Origin: Candidatus Saccharimonadales bacterium
GTDB lineage: Bacteria; Patescibacteriota; UBA1384; 2-12-FULL-50-11
Assembly (NCBI GenBank): GCA_035480235.1
Contig: DATIHX010000008.1
Span: 96,104-160,103, forward strand
Length of the DNA: 64,000 nt
Direction: 5' to 3'
The notes beneath the pieces were generated by a model. It saw nothing but the letters and a program-made list of their open reading frames with translations, did no database searches and was not told the DNA's origin. Below are positions 5,210-54,946 of this stretch, one piece after another (within the stretch, counting starts at the first letter, position 1; the number at the start of each line of letters is the position of its first letter). A program made the translations under genes and the position numbers.

Positions 5210-5455
5210 TTGTCTTTACTCCTCGCCCCATACGGGGCCTTGAATTCAATTTGCTAGTATGTTCAGTTGCGTTCGCAACCGGACGCTTCGAAGTTGCTGG
5301 GTTGAAGCCCAACAAGGCGCGAAGTTTTACCAGCGCCGTCTCAGCCAGGAGGAGGGAAGGAGGGAAACTGTCAATGCAAGGCAAGCCGAGCATTGGTGAC
5401 AGCTCTCCCTGATCCCAGCCGAGACGGCACCGATAAATTGATGGTTGCGAATGTA
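5210..5455 (-). promoter_or_regulatory. ~245-nt structured 5' leader of the secreted-protein operon
   Basis: It lies between promoter 5461-5489 and the GTG at 5209. Nested helices include 5335-5342/5421-5428 (GCCGTCTC/GAGACGGC) and 5368-5373/5397-5402. Confidence 0.45.
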
Positions 5456-5460
5456 CTTGG

Positions 5461-5489
5461 ATACTAGCATATGCTAGTTATTCTGTCGA
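5461..5489 (-). promoter_or_regulatory. extended -10 promoter
   Basis: Minus strand reads TCGACA, 17 nt, (TGC)TAGTAT. Confidence 0.6.
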
Positions 5490-5528
5490 TAAAACCGACA
5501 TATTATTAGCATATATTTCTCTCCTTTT

Positions 5529-5573
5529 AGCTCGTACATATTGAAGTACAAAAAAATATTTTTTGTACGAGCT
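5529..5573 (-). terminator. hairpin with two alternative pairings downstream of the small ORF
   Basis: AGCTCGTACA/TGTACGAGCT forms a 10-bp stem. The inner alternative is GTACAAAAAA/TTTTTTGTAC. Confidence 0.45.
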
Positions 5574-5704
5574 AGAAGGAAAGGGTGAAGCGGGGTTGCC
5601 GCTTCGCCGGATTAATCATTCTCGGTAAAAGTCGTTGGATCGTCGGAGTTACGAAAAATCGAATTCGCAACCATTTCTTCCGTGATGATCGAAACTGCCA
5701 ACCA

Positions 5705-6430: not shown

Positions 6431-7765
6431 TTACCTCGGGATGTATTGTGTTCCGCTGTCGGAATCTACGACTTCGTAGCCGTGCTGGAGGAGTTCGGCT
6501 TTGCGGTTGTCGGCCGTTAAGAAATCGCCTCTGGTCCGGGCGGCGTCACGGTCGGTAGCTAATTGCATCGCCTCGGCGTTCTTTTCTATTGGGGTGTACA
6601 CCAGGCCGAAAATATCCAAGAGTTTTTCTATTTCGGGTTTGCTGAGTGCGTCGGCGTGTTCGCCCCAGATTTGGAGGGCTAGCGGTGAATCCAGGTCGTC
6701 GTTGAGGGCGCTAATAATTTCTTCAAAGGTTTTATTATCTGAGTTCTCTGGGGCAACAGCATATGCCATAAAAATTTTCTTCCGGAGCGCGACACCTTGT
6801 TCCATCGAGGCCTTGGTGTAATCGAACGGTTTGCGGTAATGGGTTAGGTAGAAGGCTAGCCGAAGCTCGTTGGCCGAATACTGTTTGAGGGCGTCAGTCA
6901 CCAAGATACCGTTATGGAACGACTTGCTCATCTTTTGGCCGTTGACCGACAGCATGCCGGAGTGAACCCAGTAATGGGCCATCTCTTTGCCGGTTAGGCT
7001 CTCACTCTGAGCGATCTCGTTCTCATGGTGCGGGAAGACGTGCTCCACGGCCGAACCGTGAATATCGAAGGTATCGCCCAAGTATTTGCGGCTCATGGCT
7101 GAACATTCGATGTGCCAACCGGGGTAGCCGCGACCCCAGGGCGAGTCCCAGATGTAATCGTGGGTGGTAACGGGAGCAGCTTTCCAGAGGGCAAAATCGG
7201 CTGGCGAGCGCTTGTCTGAGGCCGTTTCTACCCGGGTTCCTGTCAGGACCTCGGTGAGGCCGCGGTGGCTGAGTTTGCCGTAATCCATATCTTTAGCAAC
7301 GCTAAAATAGACGTTATTCTGGGCAGTAACATATGCGAAACCTTTTTGAACCAGTTGTTCGATAAACTTGATAATATCTCCGATATGCTCCGAAGCTCTG
7401 GGAAATTGGTCCGGCGGGAGAATGTTGAGGCTCTTCAAATCTGACAGGTGGGCCTCGGTGAAGTGCTCAACAATCTGGCGTACCGTCTCGCCACTCTCCT
7501 GGGCCTTCTGTTGAACCTTATCGCGGCCGACTTCGGCGTCACCGGCTAGGTGGCCGACATCAGTGATGTTTTGAATGTATTCAACCTGGTAACCAGAGAA
7601 CCGCAAAAAACGATTCAAAAGGTCGAAACTCAGGTATGTCCGGGCGTGGCCGACGTGATCGTAGTCGTAAACGGTCGGACCGCAGACGTACATTTTCACC
7701 TTGTTCGGCTCAACAGGGTTAAAGTCTTCTTTCCGGCCGGAGAGGGTGTTGTAGAGCTGGAACAT
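6431..7765 (-). CDS. cysS: cysteinyl-tRNA synthetase
   Basis: HVGHARTY (HIGH-type) and KMSKS motifs over the full-length class I fold. Confidence 0.95.
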   Translation of the reverse strand: MFQLYNTLSGRKEDFNPVEPNKVKMYVCGPTVYDYDHVGHARTYLSFDLLNRFLRFSGYQVEYIQNITDVGHLAGDAEVGRDKVQQKAQESGETVRQIVEHFTEAHLSDLKSLNILPPDQFPRASEHIGDIIKFIEQLVQKGFAYVTAQNNVYFSVAKDMDYGKLSHRGLTEVLTGTRVETASDKRSPADFALWKAAPVTTHDYIWDSPWGRGYPGWHIECSAMSRKYLGDTFDIHGSAVEHVFPHHENEIAQSESLTGKEMAHYWVHSGMLSVNGQKMSKSFHNGILVTDALKQYSANELRLAFYLTHYRKPFDYTKASMEQGVALRKKIFMAYAVAPENSDNKTFEEIISALNDDLDSPLALQIWGEHADALSKPEIEKLLDIFGLVYTPIEKNAEAMQLATDRDAARTRGDFLTADNRKAELLQHGYEVVDSDSGTQYIPR

Positions 7766-7823
7766 TAAGTTAGTTGTACCTGAAATTGACGGCGAAAAAA
7801 AGCCAACCGCCGACCAACTTCCC

Positions 7824-7843
7824 GTATACGTTATAACGTATAC
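7824..7843. repeat. 20-nt perfect palindrome upstream of cysS
   Basis: GTATACGTTATAACGTATAC, 59-78 nt upstream of the cysS ATG. Confidence 0.9.
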
Positions 7844-8251: not shown

Positions 8252-8275
8252 CTTGATATATTATAATATATCAAG
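8252..8275. repeat. 24-nt perfect palindrome (the core of the 54760-54799 palindrome)
   Basis: CTTGATATATTATAATATATCAAG, 85 nt upstream of the zinc-ribbon gene start. Confidence 0.9.
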
Positions 8276-11891: not shown

Positions 11892-12075
11892 CAGCCAGGG
11901 CTGCCGTTCTATTCCAAAGGACAAGGGGCTTTTTGCGAGGCAGCCCCTTATCCTGTGGAGACTCCAATCCCTTCTCGCTTCTCTACGAGGTAAGGAGAAA
12001 ACCTCCGACTGCAAACCGGCAAATGGCACTGTTTGCTCCTCCGGTTTTAGGAACTATTTTATAGGCGACAAAAAG
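11892..12075 (+). ncRNA. structured intergenic repeat family, copy A
   Basis: Shares a conserved core and helices with 16825-17008, 38781-38971 and 51192-51383 (see findings). Confidence 0.6.
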
Positions 12076-12158: not shown

Positions 12159-12770
12159 ATGAAAAGAATTACACTTGGGCTTCAACCTCGGAAAAGCTCC
12201 GGTGCCGGAGAAGTCCTTCTGGGACTTTTCGGAGGCACCCTATCGTTGCAGCGCATAGTCTTGGAGCGGGCATTTAAAGTGTTCCAGCCCAAGGCGCTTG
12301 ATTTCATCTGGCACATTCGGGAGAGCGAGAACCTCATTGCAGAGCCTCACCAGCTTTGGGTCGACTACCAGGCGTCGTTCGTCGATGCTGATTTCGAAGT
12401 TAGCGATAAGCTAACGTTGCTTGGTCAGTATTTGAAGGCGTTCGACGGACACCTCTTCAACGATAGCGAGGTGTGGGATGACGTGCTCCGCAATATGCCA
12501 GACACGCCCTACTGGAACCCCGAGTGGCCAATGCCAGCGCGCATCAAGGTCGGATGGGAGTATAGCAAGCCTCCGTACGATCTCACGGTTATCTATGGAG
12601 CTGACAGCGATGAGCAGATGGCCCACTTGCTCACACACCACCACCTCGACGACATCCTCAACGGGATGTTGCCAATCATTGAGGAATTTCTCAACAGAAA
12701 GGTACAAGAAATACTCAAGATGGATCCTTCGTGGTTCGATGAGGAATCAGAAGTCCTAGTTGAGGATTGA
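12159..12770 (+). CDS. hypothetical protein
   Basis: 203-aa ORF with GGGAGGG upstream, its own promoter and its own terminator. I recognise no motif. Confidence 0.7.
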   Translation: MKRITLGLQPRKSSGAGEVLLGLFGGTLSLQRIVLERAFKVFQPKALDFIWHIRESENLIAEPHQLWVDYQASFVDADFEVSDKLTLLGQYLKAFDGHLFNDSEVWDDVLRNMPDTPYWNPEWPMPARIKVGWEYSKPPYDLTVIYGADSDEQMAHLLTHHHLDDILNGMLPIIEEFLNRKVQEILKMDPSWFDEESEVLVED

Positions 12771-12779
12771 CCACAATTC

Positions 12780-12816
12780 AGCCGGACGAGACAAAATCTC
12801 GCCCGGCTATTTTTTT
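12780..12816. terminator. bidirectional terminator
   Basis: AGCCGGACGAG...CTCGCCCGGCT followed by T7. Confidence 0.75.
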
Positions 12817-13892
12817 AGACAATATTTGCCGGCGTCGTCTTGATGGACGAGCTCTAAAAGTTCCAATTGAGTAACGAGCGCCAGGAGGGTTTCGACCGGT
12901 TGGCTGGTTAGCTCAATTAACTGATCGATAGTCAGCGGTTCAGAGAGATTTTTGACGACAGTTTTGAGCTCAACGGTTAGATCTTCCGTGACGCTCCGCT
13001 TCGAACGCAACCCGTAATAATCGTCGAGTTGCTCGGCGTCGTCCAACAGCATCGCGCCTTTTTTAATTAAGAAATTGGTGCCTTCGGCTTGGTGGCGGGT
13101 GATGTCGCCCGGCACGGCAAAGAGGTCGCGGTTGTAATCGATGACGGATTTAGCAGTGGTCAGGCTGCCAGATTTTATCTTGGCTTCGATGACGACGGTG
13201 GCTGGCGCCAGTCCAGCTAAGATCCGGTTGCGGACCGGGAACTTCCAGGGCGCTGGCCGGTCGAGCGGCGGATATTCGCTAATTAGCGCTCCCCCATTTT
13301 CCACAATTTTATCACTCAAGCGGAAATGGTCGGTTGGGTAGATGGAGTCCAGGCCGCCGGCCAAAACGGCGATGGTTTTGCCATGACATTCCAGCGACCG
13401 TTCGTGGGCGGTTTTGTCGATGCCATAAGCTAAGCCAGAAGCGATGACGATCTTGCTAGCGAGTTTATCACTAAGTAAAGTTTTAACAGCCGCGAGCGCG
13501 TACGAAGACGGCTTGCGCGTTCCGACCACACTTAAAGCTTTTTGATGAGCTATTTTAATATCGCCGCGGTGGTAAAGCCAAAGCGGCGGATCGGGAATTT
13601 CTTTTAATAGTGGCGGATAGTTGGGGTCATCGATAGTAATAAGCTGAATATTTTTCGATTTTAATAGTCGTTCGCTGGCCGAAGTATTGGTTGGCCGGTT
13701 GACCAAAGCGTCGACTTGGCCGTTGGCTAAGCCGAGCTCGCGCCAGCCCATCTCGCCCATATCTAATAGTTCGCGACAGCTGGGAACTTTGGCCCGCAAA
13801 CGATTCCAACTAATCGGCCCCAGCGGTTGCAGCACCCCCAGCGCAATAATTTCCGCTGGCGTAATCCCCTTCAACCAAGCCTTCTTTGCCAT
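12807..13892 (-). CDS. dprA: DNA processing protein DprA/Smf
   Basis: GLAYGIDKTAHE and Rossmann-like DprA core, with a C-terminal winged-helix-like region. Confidence 0.9.
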   Translation of the reverse strand: MAKKAWLKGITPAEIIALGVLQPLGPISWNRLRAKVPSCRELLDMGEMGWRELGLANGQVDALVNRPTNTSASERLLKSKNIQLITIDDPNYPPLLKEIPDPPLWLYHRGDIKIAHQKALSVVGTRKPSSYALAAVKTLLSDKLASKIVIASGLAYGIDKTAHERSLECHGKTIAVLAGGLDSIYPTDHFRLSDKIVENGGALISEYPPLDRPAPWKFPVRNRILAGLAPATVVIEAKIKSGSLTTAKSVIDYNRDLFAVPGDITRHQAEGTNFLIKKGAMLLDDAEQLDDYYGLRSKRSVTEDLTVELKTVVKNLSEPLTIDQLIELTSQPVETLLALVTQLELLELVHQDDAGKYCLKK

Positions 13893-13991
13893 TTCGCGAG
13901 CGTTAGCGAACGGAAGAGAATGAATAACTCATTCCTTATATATACTGGAAAAAGTTCTAAAAGGTAATTTCGCTCATTCTTTCCATTCCCC

Positions 13992-14013
13992 ATTATATCT
14001 TTAAAGATATAAT
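13992..14013. repeat. 22-nt perfect palindrome
   Basis: ATTATATCTTTAAAGATATAAT. Confidence 0.9.
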
Positions 14014-14040
14014 AGAAACCTCTCTTACCCAAGAAATATG

Positions 14041-14074
14041 TACTACGTTATGCTTTATAAAGCATAACGTAGTA
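14041..14074. repeat. 34-nt perfect palindrome
   Basis: TACTACGTTATGCTTTATAAAGCATAACGTAGTA. Confidence 0.9.
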
Positions 14075-14158
14075 TTGGCAAATACTTATTAAATCCACCA
14101 TATGTGTTTAAACATATACTGCAAGTTGGTGACGAAAAACTGAATTCAGCTAACCCTA

Positions 14159-14187
14159 TTGACAGATCTTCCAAAAAATAGTATATT
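14159..14187 (+). promoter_or_regulatory. consensus -35 promoter
   Basis: TTGACA, 17 nt, TATATT. Confidence 0.7.
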
Positions 14188-14291
14188 TCCCTTACTTTCT
14201 GCGCTACGTGCGGCGCCCTGGTCCAGTAATTTACGATTGGGGTATATACATAGTAACAAGCTCGTTCGAGCGTAGGAGGGAACAAGGAAAG

Positions 14292-14317
14292 GCCGCCAGC
14301 AATGGTGGCTTTTTCTT
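14292..14317 (+). terminator. intrinsic terminator inside the leader (attenuator or sRNA end)
   Basis: GCCGCCA-GCAA-TGGTGGC followed by TTTTTCTT. It lies ~57 nt before the ATG at 14374. Confidence 0.7.
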
Positions 14318-14373
14318 AATGACAACTGACGTGGTAATTGATAGAATAACTCCAACGACTGTTTGGAGGAATA

Positions 14374-14694
14374 ATGGAGCACCTTAGAAAGATTGGAGCC
14401 AACGCAGAGGTTTACGAAGACTTGGGGAATCTCATCCTGACCGTCCGCAGTATGAGAGAAACATTTAGCGTTTCCTTGCCAAAAAGCCTTGCCGGCGAAT
14501 TAAGACAAATTCGCCACGTCAACCCGAAAGAGTTTGACAATATTATGGCCAGCCTAGCGAACCTCTACGAGAATTTTCACCTAGTAGCCATAATGACTTT
14601 TGGACTGTCTAAAACAAAACCGGAAGTTATGAACGAGCTCCGAGCCTTGATATGGAATTTTGGTAATAAGGTCAGCGATAAGATAGAAGGATAA
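14374..14694 (+). CDS. hypothetical protein
   Basis: 106-aa ORF with GGAGGA upstream. Confidence 0.7.
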   Translation: MEHLRKIGANAEVYEDLGNLILTVRSMRETFSVSLPKSLAGELRQIRHVNPKEFDNIMASLANLYENFHLVAIMTFGLSKTKPEVMNELRALIWNFGNKVSDKIEG

Positions 14695-16824: not shown

Positions 16825-17008
16825 CAGCCAAGGCTACAGTTTTCATTGGAAAGGACAGGGGGCCTATTTGCGAGGCAGCCCCCTATCCTCTCCACTCCAA
16901 CCCCTGCACGCTTCTCACAGAGGTGTGGTGAAAACCTCCGGCTGCAAACCGGCAACTGGCACTGTTTGCTCCTACGGTTTTAGGAACTATTTAATAGCTA
17001 CAAAAAAG
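16825..17008 (+). ncRNA. structured intergenic repeat family, copy B
   Basis: Same architecture as copy A. Confidence 0.6.
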
Positions 17009-34260: not shown

Positions 34261-34977
34261 ATGTTCAATAAATGTTTGGTGGTCAAGGGCGAGCGTAAAC
34301 ACGATATGACCAAGTACGATTCTGAGTGGTTCACGCTCAAAAAGATAGTTAAATGCAAAAAGTGTGGTCGAGCCGTTTCCTCTTATTGGGGTCGCAAGAA
34401 CATCTACCTCCGCTGTAGCGGCTCAGGCCAGAATAGCTGTGGCAACCCAAATACCGCCGAATCGCTCGTCATTGGCCCGATTATCGATGATATCGCTCAA
34501 GCTCAAGTACCCGAGAATCTTATCCCAAAAGTGATTGCTGAACTAAAGAATCGGCACGAAAACCAGCAGCTCTATTTCACGCAAAATATCGAGCAAACCA
34601 GGAAAGAGTACGACGGAATCAAGGAAAAAATGAAAAGAATTTACTACGACCTAATGGACGGTCGTATTACTCCGCAGCTGCACGACGAAATCGCAAATGA
34701 ATTAGAAGGTCGGCAGCAGATTCTTAACGACCGGCTCAAAAAGCTAACGAGTGATAACAAAAGCTTCCAAGTAACCGCTTCTTACCTGTTAGACCTCGCC
34801 CAGCGAGCTTCTGAGCTTTTCAAATGTTCGAATTACGAGCTTAGACACAAGCTTCTGAGTTACATGCTTTCGAACATCGAATTAGAGGACAAAAAGCTCT
34901 CGTATGTGCTCAACGACCCCTTTAAAACCATCATCGAGCAAAAGAAAAAGGCCCAAGCTGGACCTAATTCTACTATT
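34261..34977 (+). pseudogene. C-terminal fragment of a large serine recombinase (zinc ribbon plus coiled coil, no catalytic domain)
   Basis: CKKCG...LRCSG...CGN zinc-ribbon pattern and coiled coil. The resolvase N-terminus is missing. The ORF tail reads through the antisense of tRNA-Trp. Confidence 0.6.
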
Positions 34978-35051
34978 TGGCAGGGACGGGGAGAATCGAA
35001 CTCCCAGTTCGGGTTTTGGAGACCCGTGGTTTACCATTAACCGACGTCCCT
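34978..35051 (-). tRNA. tRNA-Trp (CCA)
   Basis: Folded by hand: acceptor AGGGACG/CGTCCCT, anticodon loop CTCCAAA, T-arm GGGAG-TTCGATT-CTCCC, CCA encoded. Confidence 0.92.
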
Positions 35052-36181: not shown

Positions 36182-36205
36182 AAAGCTGACGGTTCGAGCC
36201 TCTAG

Positions 36206-36244
36206 CACACATAAAAGCTCCCGATTTGGGAGCTTTTATGTGTG
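36206..36244. terminator. 17-bp perfect hairpin directly after tRNA-Tyr
   Basis: CACACATAAAAGCTCCC-GATTT-GGGAGCTTTTATGTGTG. Confidence 0.6.
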
Positions 36245-36326
36245 CTGGGGGTAGGATTCGAACCTACGAAGACACAAGGCCAGCAGATTTACAGTCTGCC
36301 CTCGTTGACCGCTTGAGTACCCCAGC
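36243..36326 (-). tRNA. tRNA-Tyr (GTA)
   Basis: Acceptor GCTGGGG/CCCCAGC, anticodon loop CTGTAAA, long variable arm and T-arm GTAGG-TTCGAAT-CCTAC. Confidence 0.92.
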
Positions 36327-38780: not shown

Positions 38781-38971
38781 ATGTGGCTAGCGCCACTGAC
38801 TATTATTTGAGGGTGAGGGGGCTAATTTGCTAAGCCGCCCCCTACACCCTCAAACTCCCTACCCCCGCAAGCTTCCTTTGCGGGGCAGTGGTGCAAGCTG
38901 ATGGCTGTCAACCGGCAACTGGCACTGTTTCCTCCATCAGCTTGAAGAACTATTTTATCGGCGGCAAAAAA
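38781..38971 (+). ncRNA. structured intergenic repeat family, copy C
   Basis: See findings. Confidence 0.6.
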
Positions 38972-43058: not shown

Positions 43059-43979
43059 TTACGGGTGAGTTCGTTTGCTGTCGTGAGCAGCTAACAGCCC
43101 CGTTCTAGTGAGCCAAATAATTTGAATCCTGCTCAAACCCGTCTCATTTACCACGTCTCTCATCCGCAGCCACTGCTCTTCTTCGAGAAGTTGATGGCTA
43201 GCCAAAGCTTTCTCGAGTTCGGCCTGCCAGCTGTCAGGATGATGAACGGTCTTTCCGGGGTTGAGGTAGTAACCCCTGGCCCCTTTTTCAAGACTGCGAA
43301 GCCTTTGATGACAGGCAGGCGAACAAGTTCTCCGCCGGCGCATCCCCTTGACAATAAGGTTATTGCATTCGGGATTCTCGCACTTGCTTTTATCAAGCAA
43401 CGCTGAGAGCTCCGCGAAGCCTTCTCGTGTCAGAACGATTCGATTGCGGTCAACCCGCCGCCAACCGGCAATTCTCCCTGTTAAGCACCAATTTTCAATC
43501 GTTTTCTCATCCTTAACACCCGTTTTAGTGCACGCCTTCTTAAGGCTGACGCAAGACTTCTTCAAGGCCTGGGGGCCGAAGAGTTTCTTAATCAACCGCA
43601 ATCTCCGGTGAACAGGGGGGTAATGCGGCCAGGTTGACAAGGCAAGTGTCTTAGCGATGTATCCGATGGAGTAACCTTGCCTATAAAGTGCCCAAACAAC
43701 GAACAAAGACTTCAGCTCGTAATATCCTCTTGGTCGCGGCCGAACTCCTTCTGTTGTATGCCGAACTGGTTGATCAAGCTTATTGAAAACAAAACGGAGC
43801 TGACCGCTGGATAGATCCAATTGATCCAGGATTTCTTGGAACGCATAGCCCTGGTCGATCAACGTCTGAACCTCCCTCATCCGGCGCTGAATACGAAGTT
43901 GGGTACTGCCTTTTACCTGACCGGGTCGTTTGGCTTTAACCACCCCAAGAGGTGGCGTGCGATCTAATTGTTGAGACAT
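43059..43979 (-). CDS. multi-HTH protein with a zinc ribbon and a HYPP module
   Basis: The start ATG is preceded by GGAGG. Excisionase/MerR-like HTH segments (ETGLSRIQIIWLTRTGLL; TIENWCLTGRIAGWRR), CENPEC...CSPAC and WPHYPP. Confidence 0.7.
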   Translation of the reverse strand: MSQQLDRTPPLGVVKAKRPGQVKGSTQLRIQRRMREVQTLIDQGYAFQEILDQLDLSSGQLRFVFNKLDQPVRHTTEGVRPRPRGYYELKSLFVVWALYRQGYSIGYIAKTLALSTWPHYPPVHRRLRLIKKLFGPQALKKSCVSLKKACTKTGVKDEKTIENWCLTGRIAGWRRVDRNRIVLTREGFAELSALLDKSKCENPECNNLIVKGMRRRRTCSPACHQRLRSLEKGARGYYLNPGKTVHHPDSWQAELEKALASHQLLEEEQWLRMRDVVNETGLSRIQIIWLTRTGLLAAHDSKRTHP

Positions 43980-44028
43980 CCGATACCTCCGAAGGTGGAA
44001 ATGTGCGCCCGAAAATCCGAGCAATTGA

Positions 44029-51187: not shown

Positions 51188-51191
51188 GATT

Positions 51192-51383
51192 CTTTTTGCC
51201 GTCAATACAATAGTTCCTAAAACCGGAGGAGGAAACAGTGCCAGTTGCCGGTTGACAGCCGGAGGTTTTCTCCTTGTTCCCGACCAGGGAAGCGTGCCGG
51301 GGTACGGGGGTTTGGGGGCCTAGGGGGCGGCGTCGCAATAAGCCCCCTGGCCCCCAAATAATAGTAAGTGGCGCTAGCCACAT
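51192..51383 (-). ncRNA. structured intergenic repeat family, copy D
   Basis: Inverted orientation. It begins 10 nt after the radA stop. Confidence 0.6.
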
Positions 51384-54720: not shown

Positions 54721-54759
54721 GAGCCCCACTGTAACACAAGTTCAAAAATACTCTTCGCT

Positions 54760-54799
54760 CACGTACCCTTGATATATTATAATATATCAAGGGTACGTG
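54760..54799. repeat. 40-nt perfect palindrome upstream of recJ
   Basis: CACGTACCCTTGATATATTATAATATATCAAGGGTACGTG. The inner 24 nt are identical to 8252-8275. Confidence 0.92.
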
Positions 54800-54946
54800 T
54801 TTTATGCTTTGCGGGAATACCTCAATTGGTAAGCCGCGCGGGGGAGCAGTCACCGAAGGCGAAGCGGCAGGCGAAGAAGTAGCTGCCAAGGGCGAAAGTC
54901 TGGGAGATTCATTGATGAGTCCAGCTCACAACACCGGCTATCTTGG

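Follow-up and report, generated by a model that had tools for sequence, protein, structure and literature searches.

Template switching in Escherichia coli corrects quasi-palindromes to perfect or more perfect inverted repeats (PMC7202029), and a proposal for Proteobacteria attributes the conservation of such repeats to a preference for correcting them to the perfect form (PMC5941160). The present analysis concerns a cluster of long, AT-rich perfect palindromes upstream of dprA, and further palindromes of the same kind, in a stretch of 64,000 nucleotides from a Candidatus Saccharimonadales bacterium (assembly GCA_035480235.1, contig DATIHX010000008.1, positions 96,104 to 160,103; the whole stretch is referred to as the window). 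The palindromes are real, statistically extreme in number and lineage-specific, and they are best regarded as young sequences that palindrome-perfecting replication errors have produced in spacers undergoing expansion.

Operators of dimeric bacterial regulators of the LexA, Fur or TetR type span about 16-20 bp. An intrinsic terminator has a GC-rich stem, a loop of 3-8 nt and a U-tract immediately 3' of the stem, and is located downstream of a gene, whereas a dif site is a single site of 28-34 bp in which two arms flank a non-palindromic centre of 6-8 bp. Repetitive extragenic palindromic (REP) sequences, finally, are defined by a GTAG or CGTC tetranucleotide tag and an imperfect stem-loop, and strengthening the palindrome abolished cleavage by the RAYT transposase (PMC3733652).

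Long perfect palindromes in the window

The sequence-only reading that preceded this work had listed three palindromes in the dprA upstream region and one upstream of cysS, and all of them are present (P3, P4, site B and P1 in Table 1); the third member of the cluster, a 10-nt core TGTTTAAACA (14105-14114), forms the middle of the 20-bp dyad designated here as site B. A census of the whole window added P2 and P5, which that reading did not contain. All five perfect palindromes of at least 20 nt (P1-P5) are intergenic and AT-rich, with arms of 65-91% AT, and the centres are, much as had been described, TTATAA (four) or TTTAAA (two). In the dprA-upstream cluster the centre-to-centre spacing is 52 and 55 bp, or about five helical turns, and P3 is located upstream of dprA, approximately 63-84 nt from the ancestral start (13929). 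P1 and P4 do share a half-site, as had been proposed, although it is the 8-mer TACGTTAT rather than the 7-nt ACGTTAT (P ~0.012 relative to composition-matched palindromes), and the 24-nt sequence of P2 is contained exactly in P5. The termini of P4 read GTAG/CTAC, a tag present symmetrically at both of its ends. P1 and P2 are positioned 20-55 nt downstream of a co-directional gene, as are several examples from metagenomes that are described below. As DNA, the palindromes fold to very stable hairpins (-22.2 kcal/mol, z = -7). The ordinary hairpins of the window, mostly GC-rich terminators, have non-palindromic central loops, and the zero-spacer palindromes therefore form a separate class.

Dinucleotide shuffles of the window gave an expectation of 0.06 perfect palindromes of at least 20 nt, of which five were observed, and of 1.35 palindromes of at least 16 nt, of which eight were observed. 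When the intergenic DNA alone was shuffled segment by segment, which preserves the local AT content and composition, the expected numbers were 0.0115 (five observed) and 0.138 (seven observed), respectively, and in the focal spacer (13893-14158) two palindromes of at least 16 nt compare with 0.01 expected. The earlier impression that long perfect palindromes are unusually dense here is thus upheld both against shuffled sequence and against close relatives. The region that had been described as 480 nt of intergenic DNA consists of an AT-rich spacer of about 265 nt (31% GC), which holds the palindromes and lies between two divergent transcription units, the remainder being occupied by a conserved small-RNA-like gene. 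An assembly artefact is improbable, as chimeric reads do not yield short internal palindromes and an identical sequence is found in a second assembly (L017, one mismatch in 16.6 kb), the same reads possibly underlying both.

Table 1. Palindromic sites, genes, spacers and other elements of the window; positions are those of the window unless a contig is named
Feature	Position (strand)	Sequence	Remarks
P1 (= site A), perfect palindrome, 20 nt	7824-7843	GTATACGTTATAACGTATAC = GTATACG-TTATAA-CGTATAC	between small Zn-ribbon gene and cysS
P2, perfect palindrome, 24 nt	8252-8275	CTTGATATATTA / TAATATATCAAG	in ~105 additional nt of the recR/Zn-ribbon gene spacer
P3, zero-spacer perfect palindrome, 22 nt	13992-14013	ATTATATCTTTAAAGATATAAT, halves ATTATATCTTT / AAAGATATAAT	91% AT, centre TTTAAA
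P4, zero-spacer perfect palindrome, 34 nt	14041-14074	TACTACGTTATGCTTTATAAAGCATAACGTAGTA	centre TTATAA; TACGTTAT in outer arms
P5, perfect palindrome, 40 nt	54760-54799	P2 core + 8 symmetric nt per side	226-nt spacer upstream of recJ
Site B, 20-bp 7-6-7 dyad	14100-14119	ATATGTG-TTTAAA-CATATAC	8/10 pairs
Perfect palindrome, 16 nt	5463-5478	ACTAGCAT / ATGCTAGT	
Interrupted palindrome	5528-5574	TAGCTCGTAC...GTACGAGCTA around GTACAAAAAAATATTTTTTGTAC	kept in three lineages
dprA (DNA_processg_A)	12807-13892 (-)		start moved 37 nt from ancestral ATG at 13929 by small insertion
Small-RNA-like gene	14159-14318 (+)		divergent from dprA; promoter TTGACA-17-TATATT at 14159-14187
Orthologues of small-RNA-like gene	L012:2238-2402; L011:9647-9806; L015:9805-9935; L018:2453-2590; L014:7032-7160		
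Spacer, recR to Zn-ribbon gene			154 nt in window; 42-85 nt in relatives
Spacer, Zn-ribbon gene to cysS			123 nt in window; 53-77 nt in relatives
Spacer, ftsQ-like gene to recJ			226 nt in window; 4-6 nt in relatives
Spacer, dprA to small-RNA -35 box			229 nt in window; 161 nt in sister
Insertion between recJ and ftsQ-like gene	54721-54946		226 nt; the two genes abut (4-6 nt) in relatives
Insertion after ancestral dprA ATG	13893-13929		37 nt, relative to sister
Conserved non-coding region	5210-5620 (minus-strand sense); L029:4411-4815; L011:19120-19520		upstream of 314-aa gene of unknown function
-10-like boxes before start codons	8168-8205; 7766-7790; 13930-13945		
Lineage-specific ORFs	14374-14694 (+); 12159-12770 (+)		106 aa; 203 aa
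Structured RNA-like element, four copies	11892-12074 (-); 16825-17006 (-); 38816-38971 (-); 51191-51352 (+)		~150-185 nt
Hairpin next to tRNA-Tyr	36204-36246	AGCACACATAAAAGCTCCC gattt GGGAGCTTTTATGTGTGCT	43 nt; 19-bp perfect arms, 5-nt loop
ORF with recombinase zinc-ribbon domain	34261-35040 (+)		beside tRNA-Trp
ORF with resolvase-type HTH_7 domain	43059-44024 (-)		

Related genomes and the perfection of symmetry

Relatives were found via protein searches and contig look-ups, a scan of genome contigs with DprA having returned distant homologues only (at most 42% identity). The gene order rplK-dprA-topA-recR-Zn-ribbon gene-cysS is kept in contigs of five related lineages (DprA identity 63-84%), and the order murB-ftsQ-like gene-recJ in two (RecJ identity 80-82%). 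No AT-rich perfect palindrome of at least 16 nt occurs in 118 kb of syntenic DNA from six related lineages, the sole 20-nt perfect palindrome in that DNA being GC-rich. The spacers that bear the palindromes are enlarged in this lineage only, and the long palindromes are therefore young and lineage-specific.

The sister genome, which is represented by contigs L012, L029 and L030 of one sample (81-84% protein identity to the window), has no counterpart of P2, P4 or P5 and shows at most a short quasi-palindrome in the region of P3 (on L012). Shorter, imperfect dyads are found in it at several positions orthologous to sites of the window, and its dprA start is overlapped by a 28-nt quasi-palindrome. 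For the dprA upstream region, too, comparative genomics shows that the long palindromes are lineage-specific and absent from syntenic relatives. The proposed relationship between the dprA cluster and the palindrome upstream of cysS is borne out by the sister, in which site A and site B are paralogues identical at 16/20 positions, compared with 14/20 within the window.

At site A the sister carries GTATGTGCTCAAACACATAA (GTATGTG-CTCAAA-CACATAA), in which 7/10 pairs are formed, and the window carries P1, with 10/10. The two sequences differ at 8/20 positions, yet P1 is perfectly symmetric: the differences in the arms include two reciprocal ones (G:C to A:T and T:A to C:G), and in place of the sister's centre CTCAAA, which is not palindromic, the window has the palindromic TTATAA. 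At 5463-5478 the sister reads TATGGCAT / ATGCTAGT, so that three differences fall within 4 nt and in the left arm only; the left arm of the window is the exact complement of the unchanged right arm, and the next 30 nt are identical to the sister. At both sites clustered differences give the window the higher complementarity of the arms, as expected of a product of template switching. P5 extends the P2 core by eight more symmetric nucleotides per side, with flanks that are not significantly similar to those of P2, and the pair appears to record a symmetric growth towards the outside for which a common binding protein would have no need. Flank similarity between P2 and 5489-5516 was likewise not significant, and the similarity between P1 and site B plus flank was marginal (4/500 shuffles before multiple-test correction). 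A 19/25 in-register match of P3 with site B and two direct repeats of 10-11 nt in the dprA spacer are at about chance level in AT-rich DNA and are not relied on.

The model that is tentatively preferred here, at a confidence somewhat short of even, is that of a small, fast-evolving family of AT-rich dyads which is perfected and lengthened by template-switch (quasi-palindrome) correction and is occasionally copied. Template switching is favored because the symmetry spans the centre, persists amid change and grows outward, and because the clustered changes complement the other arm. According to this model, the clade would hold a small family of AT-rich dyads in gene spacers, the old members of which (site B and the interrupted palindrome at 5528-5574) would be functional, and the young members, P1-P5, would have arisen inside spacer DNA that expanded in this lineage only. 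A nascent strand copying the opposite arm, or the other nascent strand, would turn an imperfect inverted repeat into a perfect or longer one; the symmetry would be maintained while the sequence drifts, and the palindromes would extend outwards, as in P5 relative to P2. At least one palindrome would have been copied to a second spacer, the sites at 8252 and 54760 sharing a 24-nt core, and P3 and P4 would have no sequence-specific function.

The likeness to quasi-palindrome mutagenesis (Ripley model; PMC7202029, PMC5941160) lies in the occurrence of imperfect and perfect states of orthologous repeats, in changes that are clustered, multi-nucleotide and complementary to the other arm, and in a symmetry that outlasts sequence drift. 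Unlike known quasi-palindromes, the palindromes of the window reach much greater lengths (up to 34-40 nt), lack a spacer, include one that is duplicated between loci, and are concentrated in one lineage and in new spacers, the mechanism being drawn from two-taxon comparisons.

It has to be noted that several points weigh against this model. The census covers 64 kb of the genome. More distant relatives are unalignable or without the site at both site A and 5463-5478; no outgroup aligns at the changed arms, and the sister could equally have lost symmetry. The classical intrastrand snap-back leaves an untemplated loop, and perfect centres need the cross-fork (interstrand) version, which would have had to act here in place of the snap-back. 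Template switching covers at most half of each palindrome and leaves the remaining 50-180 nt of new spacer DNA unexplained, and the identical 24-nt core of P2 and P5 at two loci needs an additional copying mechanism. The conserved dyads (site B and 5528-5574) show, moreover, that part of the family, at least, is under selection, and the young palindromes could be functional too.

Competing explanations

An operator array, which the sequence-only reading had considered, would make the palindromes the sites of one or more dimeric or tetrameric regulators controlling dprA, the small RNA, cysS, recJ and the Zn-ribbon gene, possibly as a DNA-uptake and recombination regulon. This alternative is possible but doubtful. 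Exact even dyad symmetry through the centre suits a symmetric protein dimer, every site is read as lying upstream of a putative core promoter without overlapping it, the spacing within the cluster amounts to about five helical turns, the P2 core is found in identical form upstream of two genes as part of P2 and P5, and the 28-nt quasi-palindrome of the sister overlaps its dprA start. Site B fits this picture: it is 18/20 identical between the window and the sister (GTATGTG-TTTAAG-CACATAT), where the surrounding spacer can barely be aligned, and it is therefore a sequence-constrained element. It lies 39 and 41 nt, respectively, upstream of the small-RNA -35 box in the two genomes and has the 16/20 paralogue upstream of the sister's cysS; it is probably bound by a protein and linked to the small-RNA promoter.

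Like the operators of dimeric regulators, site B and its paralogue upstream of cysS are 7-6-7 dyads upstream of promoters, and their sequence and position are conserved in two genomes. Unlike such operators, the long palindromes are not conserved and, with 34 and 40 bp of perfect symmetry, exceed the normal operator size, and the outer 8+8 nt of P5 are not present in P2. P2, P4 and P5 are missing from the sister, and P3 is reduced there, even though the genes and promoters are conserved, and P2-P5 are absent from more distant relatives. The arms of site A and site B have diverged within one genome, though a single protein must read both, isolated or degenerate half-sites were not found elsewhere in the window, and the two identical 24-nt sites indicate recent copying rather than convergent selection. 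There is no adjacent DNA-binding gene, the neighbours including small lineage-specific open reading frames (ORFs) without a Pfam match, and none of the sequences is known to match a regulator consensus. The idea of an operator array is thus plausible for the conserved site B, but not for P3 and P4, neither of which the sister possesses, nor could a cognate regulator be identified. Scans showed no promoter using the palindromes, by which a role as bidirectional or sigma-70 promoters was rejected.

A further, unlikely explanation is that the palindromes are REP sequences, MITEs (miniature inverted-repeat transposable elements) or other mobile palindromic repeats spread by a RAYT-like or unknown transposase, the dprA cluster resembling a bacterial interspersed mosaic element (BIME). 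As with REP sequences and BIMEs (PMC3733652), the palindromes are short (20-40 nt), extragenic, sometimes clustered within about 100 nt, and lineage-specific, including between DNA-repair genes; they lie in inserted DNA, exact copies of the P2 core occur at two loci, and P4 has the GTAG/CTAC ends. Unlike REP sequences, they are AT-rich rather than GC-rich, the GTAG/CGTC tag is missing from P1, P2, P3 and P5, the stems are perfect, with zero spacer and no unpaired loop, and almost every copy differs in sequence. No single sequence exceeds two copies in 64 kb (the P2/P5 core), half-site searches having found no more. A Pfam scan of 38 ORFs (36 from the window, comprising most of its genes, and two from relatives) detected no Y1 or other transposase, and hence no RAYT among the window ORFs scanned, and four of the palindromes had no match in 2.9 M viral contigs. 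The resemblance to MITEs such as the Correia elements of Neisseria consists in small intergenic inserts that, as at recJ, can push genes apart and introduce promoter-like sequence; unlike MITEs, the inserts are not bounded by terminal inverted repeats (repeat scans show only the central palindromes), and similarity is limited to the palindromic core. Sequence at the junction of the recJ insertion appears to be duplicated on both sides, but is too diverged to be called a target duplication. Of the earlier suggestion that the cluster is a remnant of an inserted element, what stands is that the palindromes reside in lineage-specific spacer DNA; a recognisable mobile element was not found.

Matches in other metagenomes were also taken to speak for mobility, as contigs with the P2 core carry more long palindromes. 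A scan with the 22-nt core of P2 returned nine contigs representing eight distinct loci of 24-50% GC in unrelated gene contexts, the chance expectation being uncalibrated since the total bases of the collection are not given. In all but one of these loci a longer palindrome is built around the core, with outer arms that differ. The P2 core is not taken here as a widely conserved motif, because flanks and neighbours are unrelated and very TA-rich centres can coincide by chance in a very large collection; L027 is the only one of the contigs with a demonstrated homologue of a protein of the window. L024 bears a second, unrelated 28-nt perfect palindrome, AAGATTATGGGTTTAAACCCATAATCTT (7399-7426), and L021 two copies of TCCGCCAGCTGGCGGA (2542-2557 and 5543-5558), the pilin and LepA/MurJ-type genes of these two contigs being read from ORF translations only. 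There are hints in this that palindrome-rich genomes are a recurring type.

It is quite unlikely that an active and previously undescribed process in this lineage of the candidate phyla radiation (CPR) creates perfect AT-rich palindromes in gene spacers, lengthens them and copies them, and that they are then co-opted as upstream regulatory or cruciform elements. One possible route would be the integration of hairpin-protected single-stranded DNA via the competence machinery (the window includes dprA, recJ and type IV pili), and another a palindrome-specific mobile mechanism without a classical transposase; co-option might, as one possibility, yield supercoil-sensitive cruciforms of DNA-uptake and recombination genes.

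Likewise quite unlikely are hairpins acting at the RNA level, as terminators, 3'-end stabilisers or 5'-UTR (untranslated region) structures of the flanking genes. The positions of P1, P2 and several metagenomic examples downstream of co-directional genes, the U-run after the sister's site A, the weak flagging of P4 (minus strand) and P5 (plus strand) by a terminator scan, the stability of the hairpins, and the changes at 5528-5574, where a compensatory T:A to C:G change and G:U-type changes are seen across three lineages, are all consistent with such a role. However, P3, P4 and site B are placed between divergent promoters, in a stretch without a predicted transcript, P1, P2 and P3 are not followed by a U-tract, and the T-run of P5 is antisense to the genes on both sides. 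Elsewhere the window contains canonical terminators, GC-rich and with loops and T-runs, and an RNA function needs neither palindromic loop nucleotides nor a complete lack of G:U pairs.

It is hardly credible that the palindromes mark an origin or terminus of replication, a dif/Xer or nicking site or a site of the telomere-resolvase type, some of which the sequence-only reading had raised: AT-rich, easily melted palindromes do resemble DNA-unwinding elements, nick sites and resolvase targets, and topA, recR, dprA and recJ are neighbours, but DnaA boxes (at most one mismatch) number 10 compared with 9.2 expected, with no cluster and none in the dprA spacer, the GC skew has no inflection at 14 kb, neither dnaA nor dnaN was seen in the vicinity, a single-copy dif or origin is incompatible with five different palindromes at four loci in 64 kb, the centres are palindromic throughout, unlike that of dif, and the sites are absent from syntenic relatives.

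The dprA locus, other elements and implications

The cluster is flanked by cysS, the small acidic Zn-ribbon gene, recR, topA, dprA, rplK and nusG, with recJ 40 kb away; the nearest named homologues of DprA, CysS and RecJ are those of Candidatus Berkelbacteria and other Patescibacteria. The stretch adjoining the palindrome spacer reads as an unannotated small-RNA-like gene divergent from dprA. It has a near-consensus sigma-70 promoter, and the sequence at 14153-14319 is 70-87% identical to five related genomes, which for most of them is above the neighbouring coding DNA. The predicted transcript of about 125 nt ends in a terminator hairpin and T-run and folds into a conserved structure with covariation, the terminator hairpin showing compensatory changes; a long helix is present in which CUUUCU is paired with a GGAGG-like stretch. 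An Rfam 15 scan of the window returned five tRNAs only at the gathering score, the best E value in 13850-14450 being 0.33.

In comparison with the sister, an insertion of 37 nt directly follows the ancestral ATG of dprA, and ATG is found again at its downstream junction; the ancestral ATG now starts a 9-codon ORF, and dprA begins at 13892 without an obvious Shine-Dalgarno sequence. The ORFs of 106 and 203 aa, which are lineage-specific and without a match in the Pfam scan, fill the slots between rplK and dprA and between dprA and topA; relatives carry unrelated ORFs there, and these variable slots are therefore small insertion hot spots. The Zn-ribbon gene, cysS, recJ and, ancestrally, dprA each have, only 3-10 nt before the start codon, a box that resembles the -10 element and is conserved in relatives, which suggests that leaderless or near-leaderless mRNAs may be widespread in this clade. 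The conserved promoter of the Zn-ribbon gene is downstream of P2. In the insertion upstream of recJ, the GC-rich distal half resembles nothing that was found, and the proximal part contains P5 together with a TGn-extended -10-like box TGTTACAGT placed 8 nt before the recJ ATG, suggesting that the insertion may have brought a new, nearly leaderless recJ promoter.

The sites at 5463-5478 and 5528-5574 belong to a strongly conserved non-coding region upstream of the 314-aa gene, which contains a GC hairpin, the interrupted palindrome and an AAGGAG box followed by a mini-ORF of 12-15 codons (MLII...), with a further conserved structured stretch at 5325-5474. An Rfam search of the region gave no match, and it could be a leader or riboswitch-like element. 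A structured RNA-like element is present in four copies; it follows a TATAAAAT box and has an invariant core AAACAGTGCCAGTTGCCGGTT, three helices and 12 covarying pairs, with no Rfam match at gathering score or E<0.1. Relatives have it as well (at L011:6096-6267 and at each end of L012), and their assemblies seem to be broken by it. The hairpin at 36204-36246 abuts tRNA-Tyr on the 3' side and probably acts as a terminator in both directions, and the two ORFs with recombinase- and resolvase-type domains may be remnants of integrated mobile DNA, the former in a segment of lower GC at 30-36 kb.

The host lineage is, to our knowledge, reduced and uncultivated, with a poorly known repair repertoire, and we know of almost no cis-regulatory elements in Patescibacteria. 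The window offers three candidate regulatory features, namely the 20-bp dyad upstream of the small-RNA gene, that gene itself and the multi-copy structured RNA family. If the palindromes were operators, they would define a lineage-specific regulon that includes dprA and recJ, which are central to a DNA-scavenging lifestyle. If the template-switch model is true, the sister pair would provide a clean natural example of the birth and perfection of palindromes in a bacterium, and the imperfect and perfect orthologous states, placed side by side, would make template-switch mutagenesis testable with population metagenomic reads.

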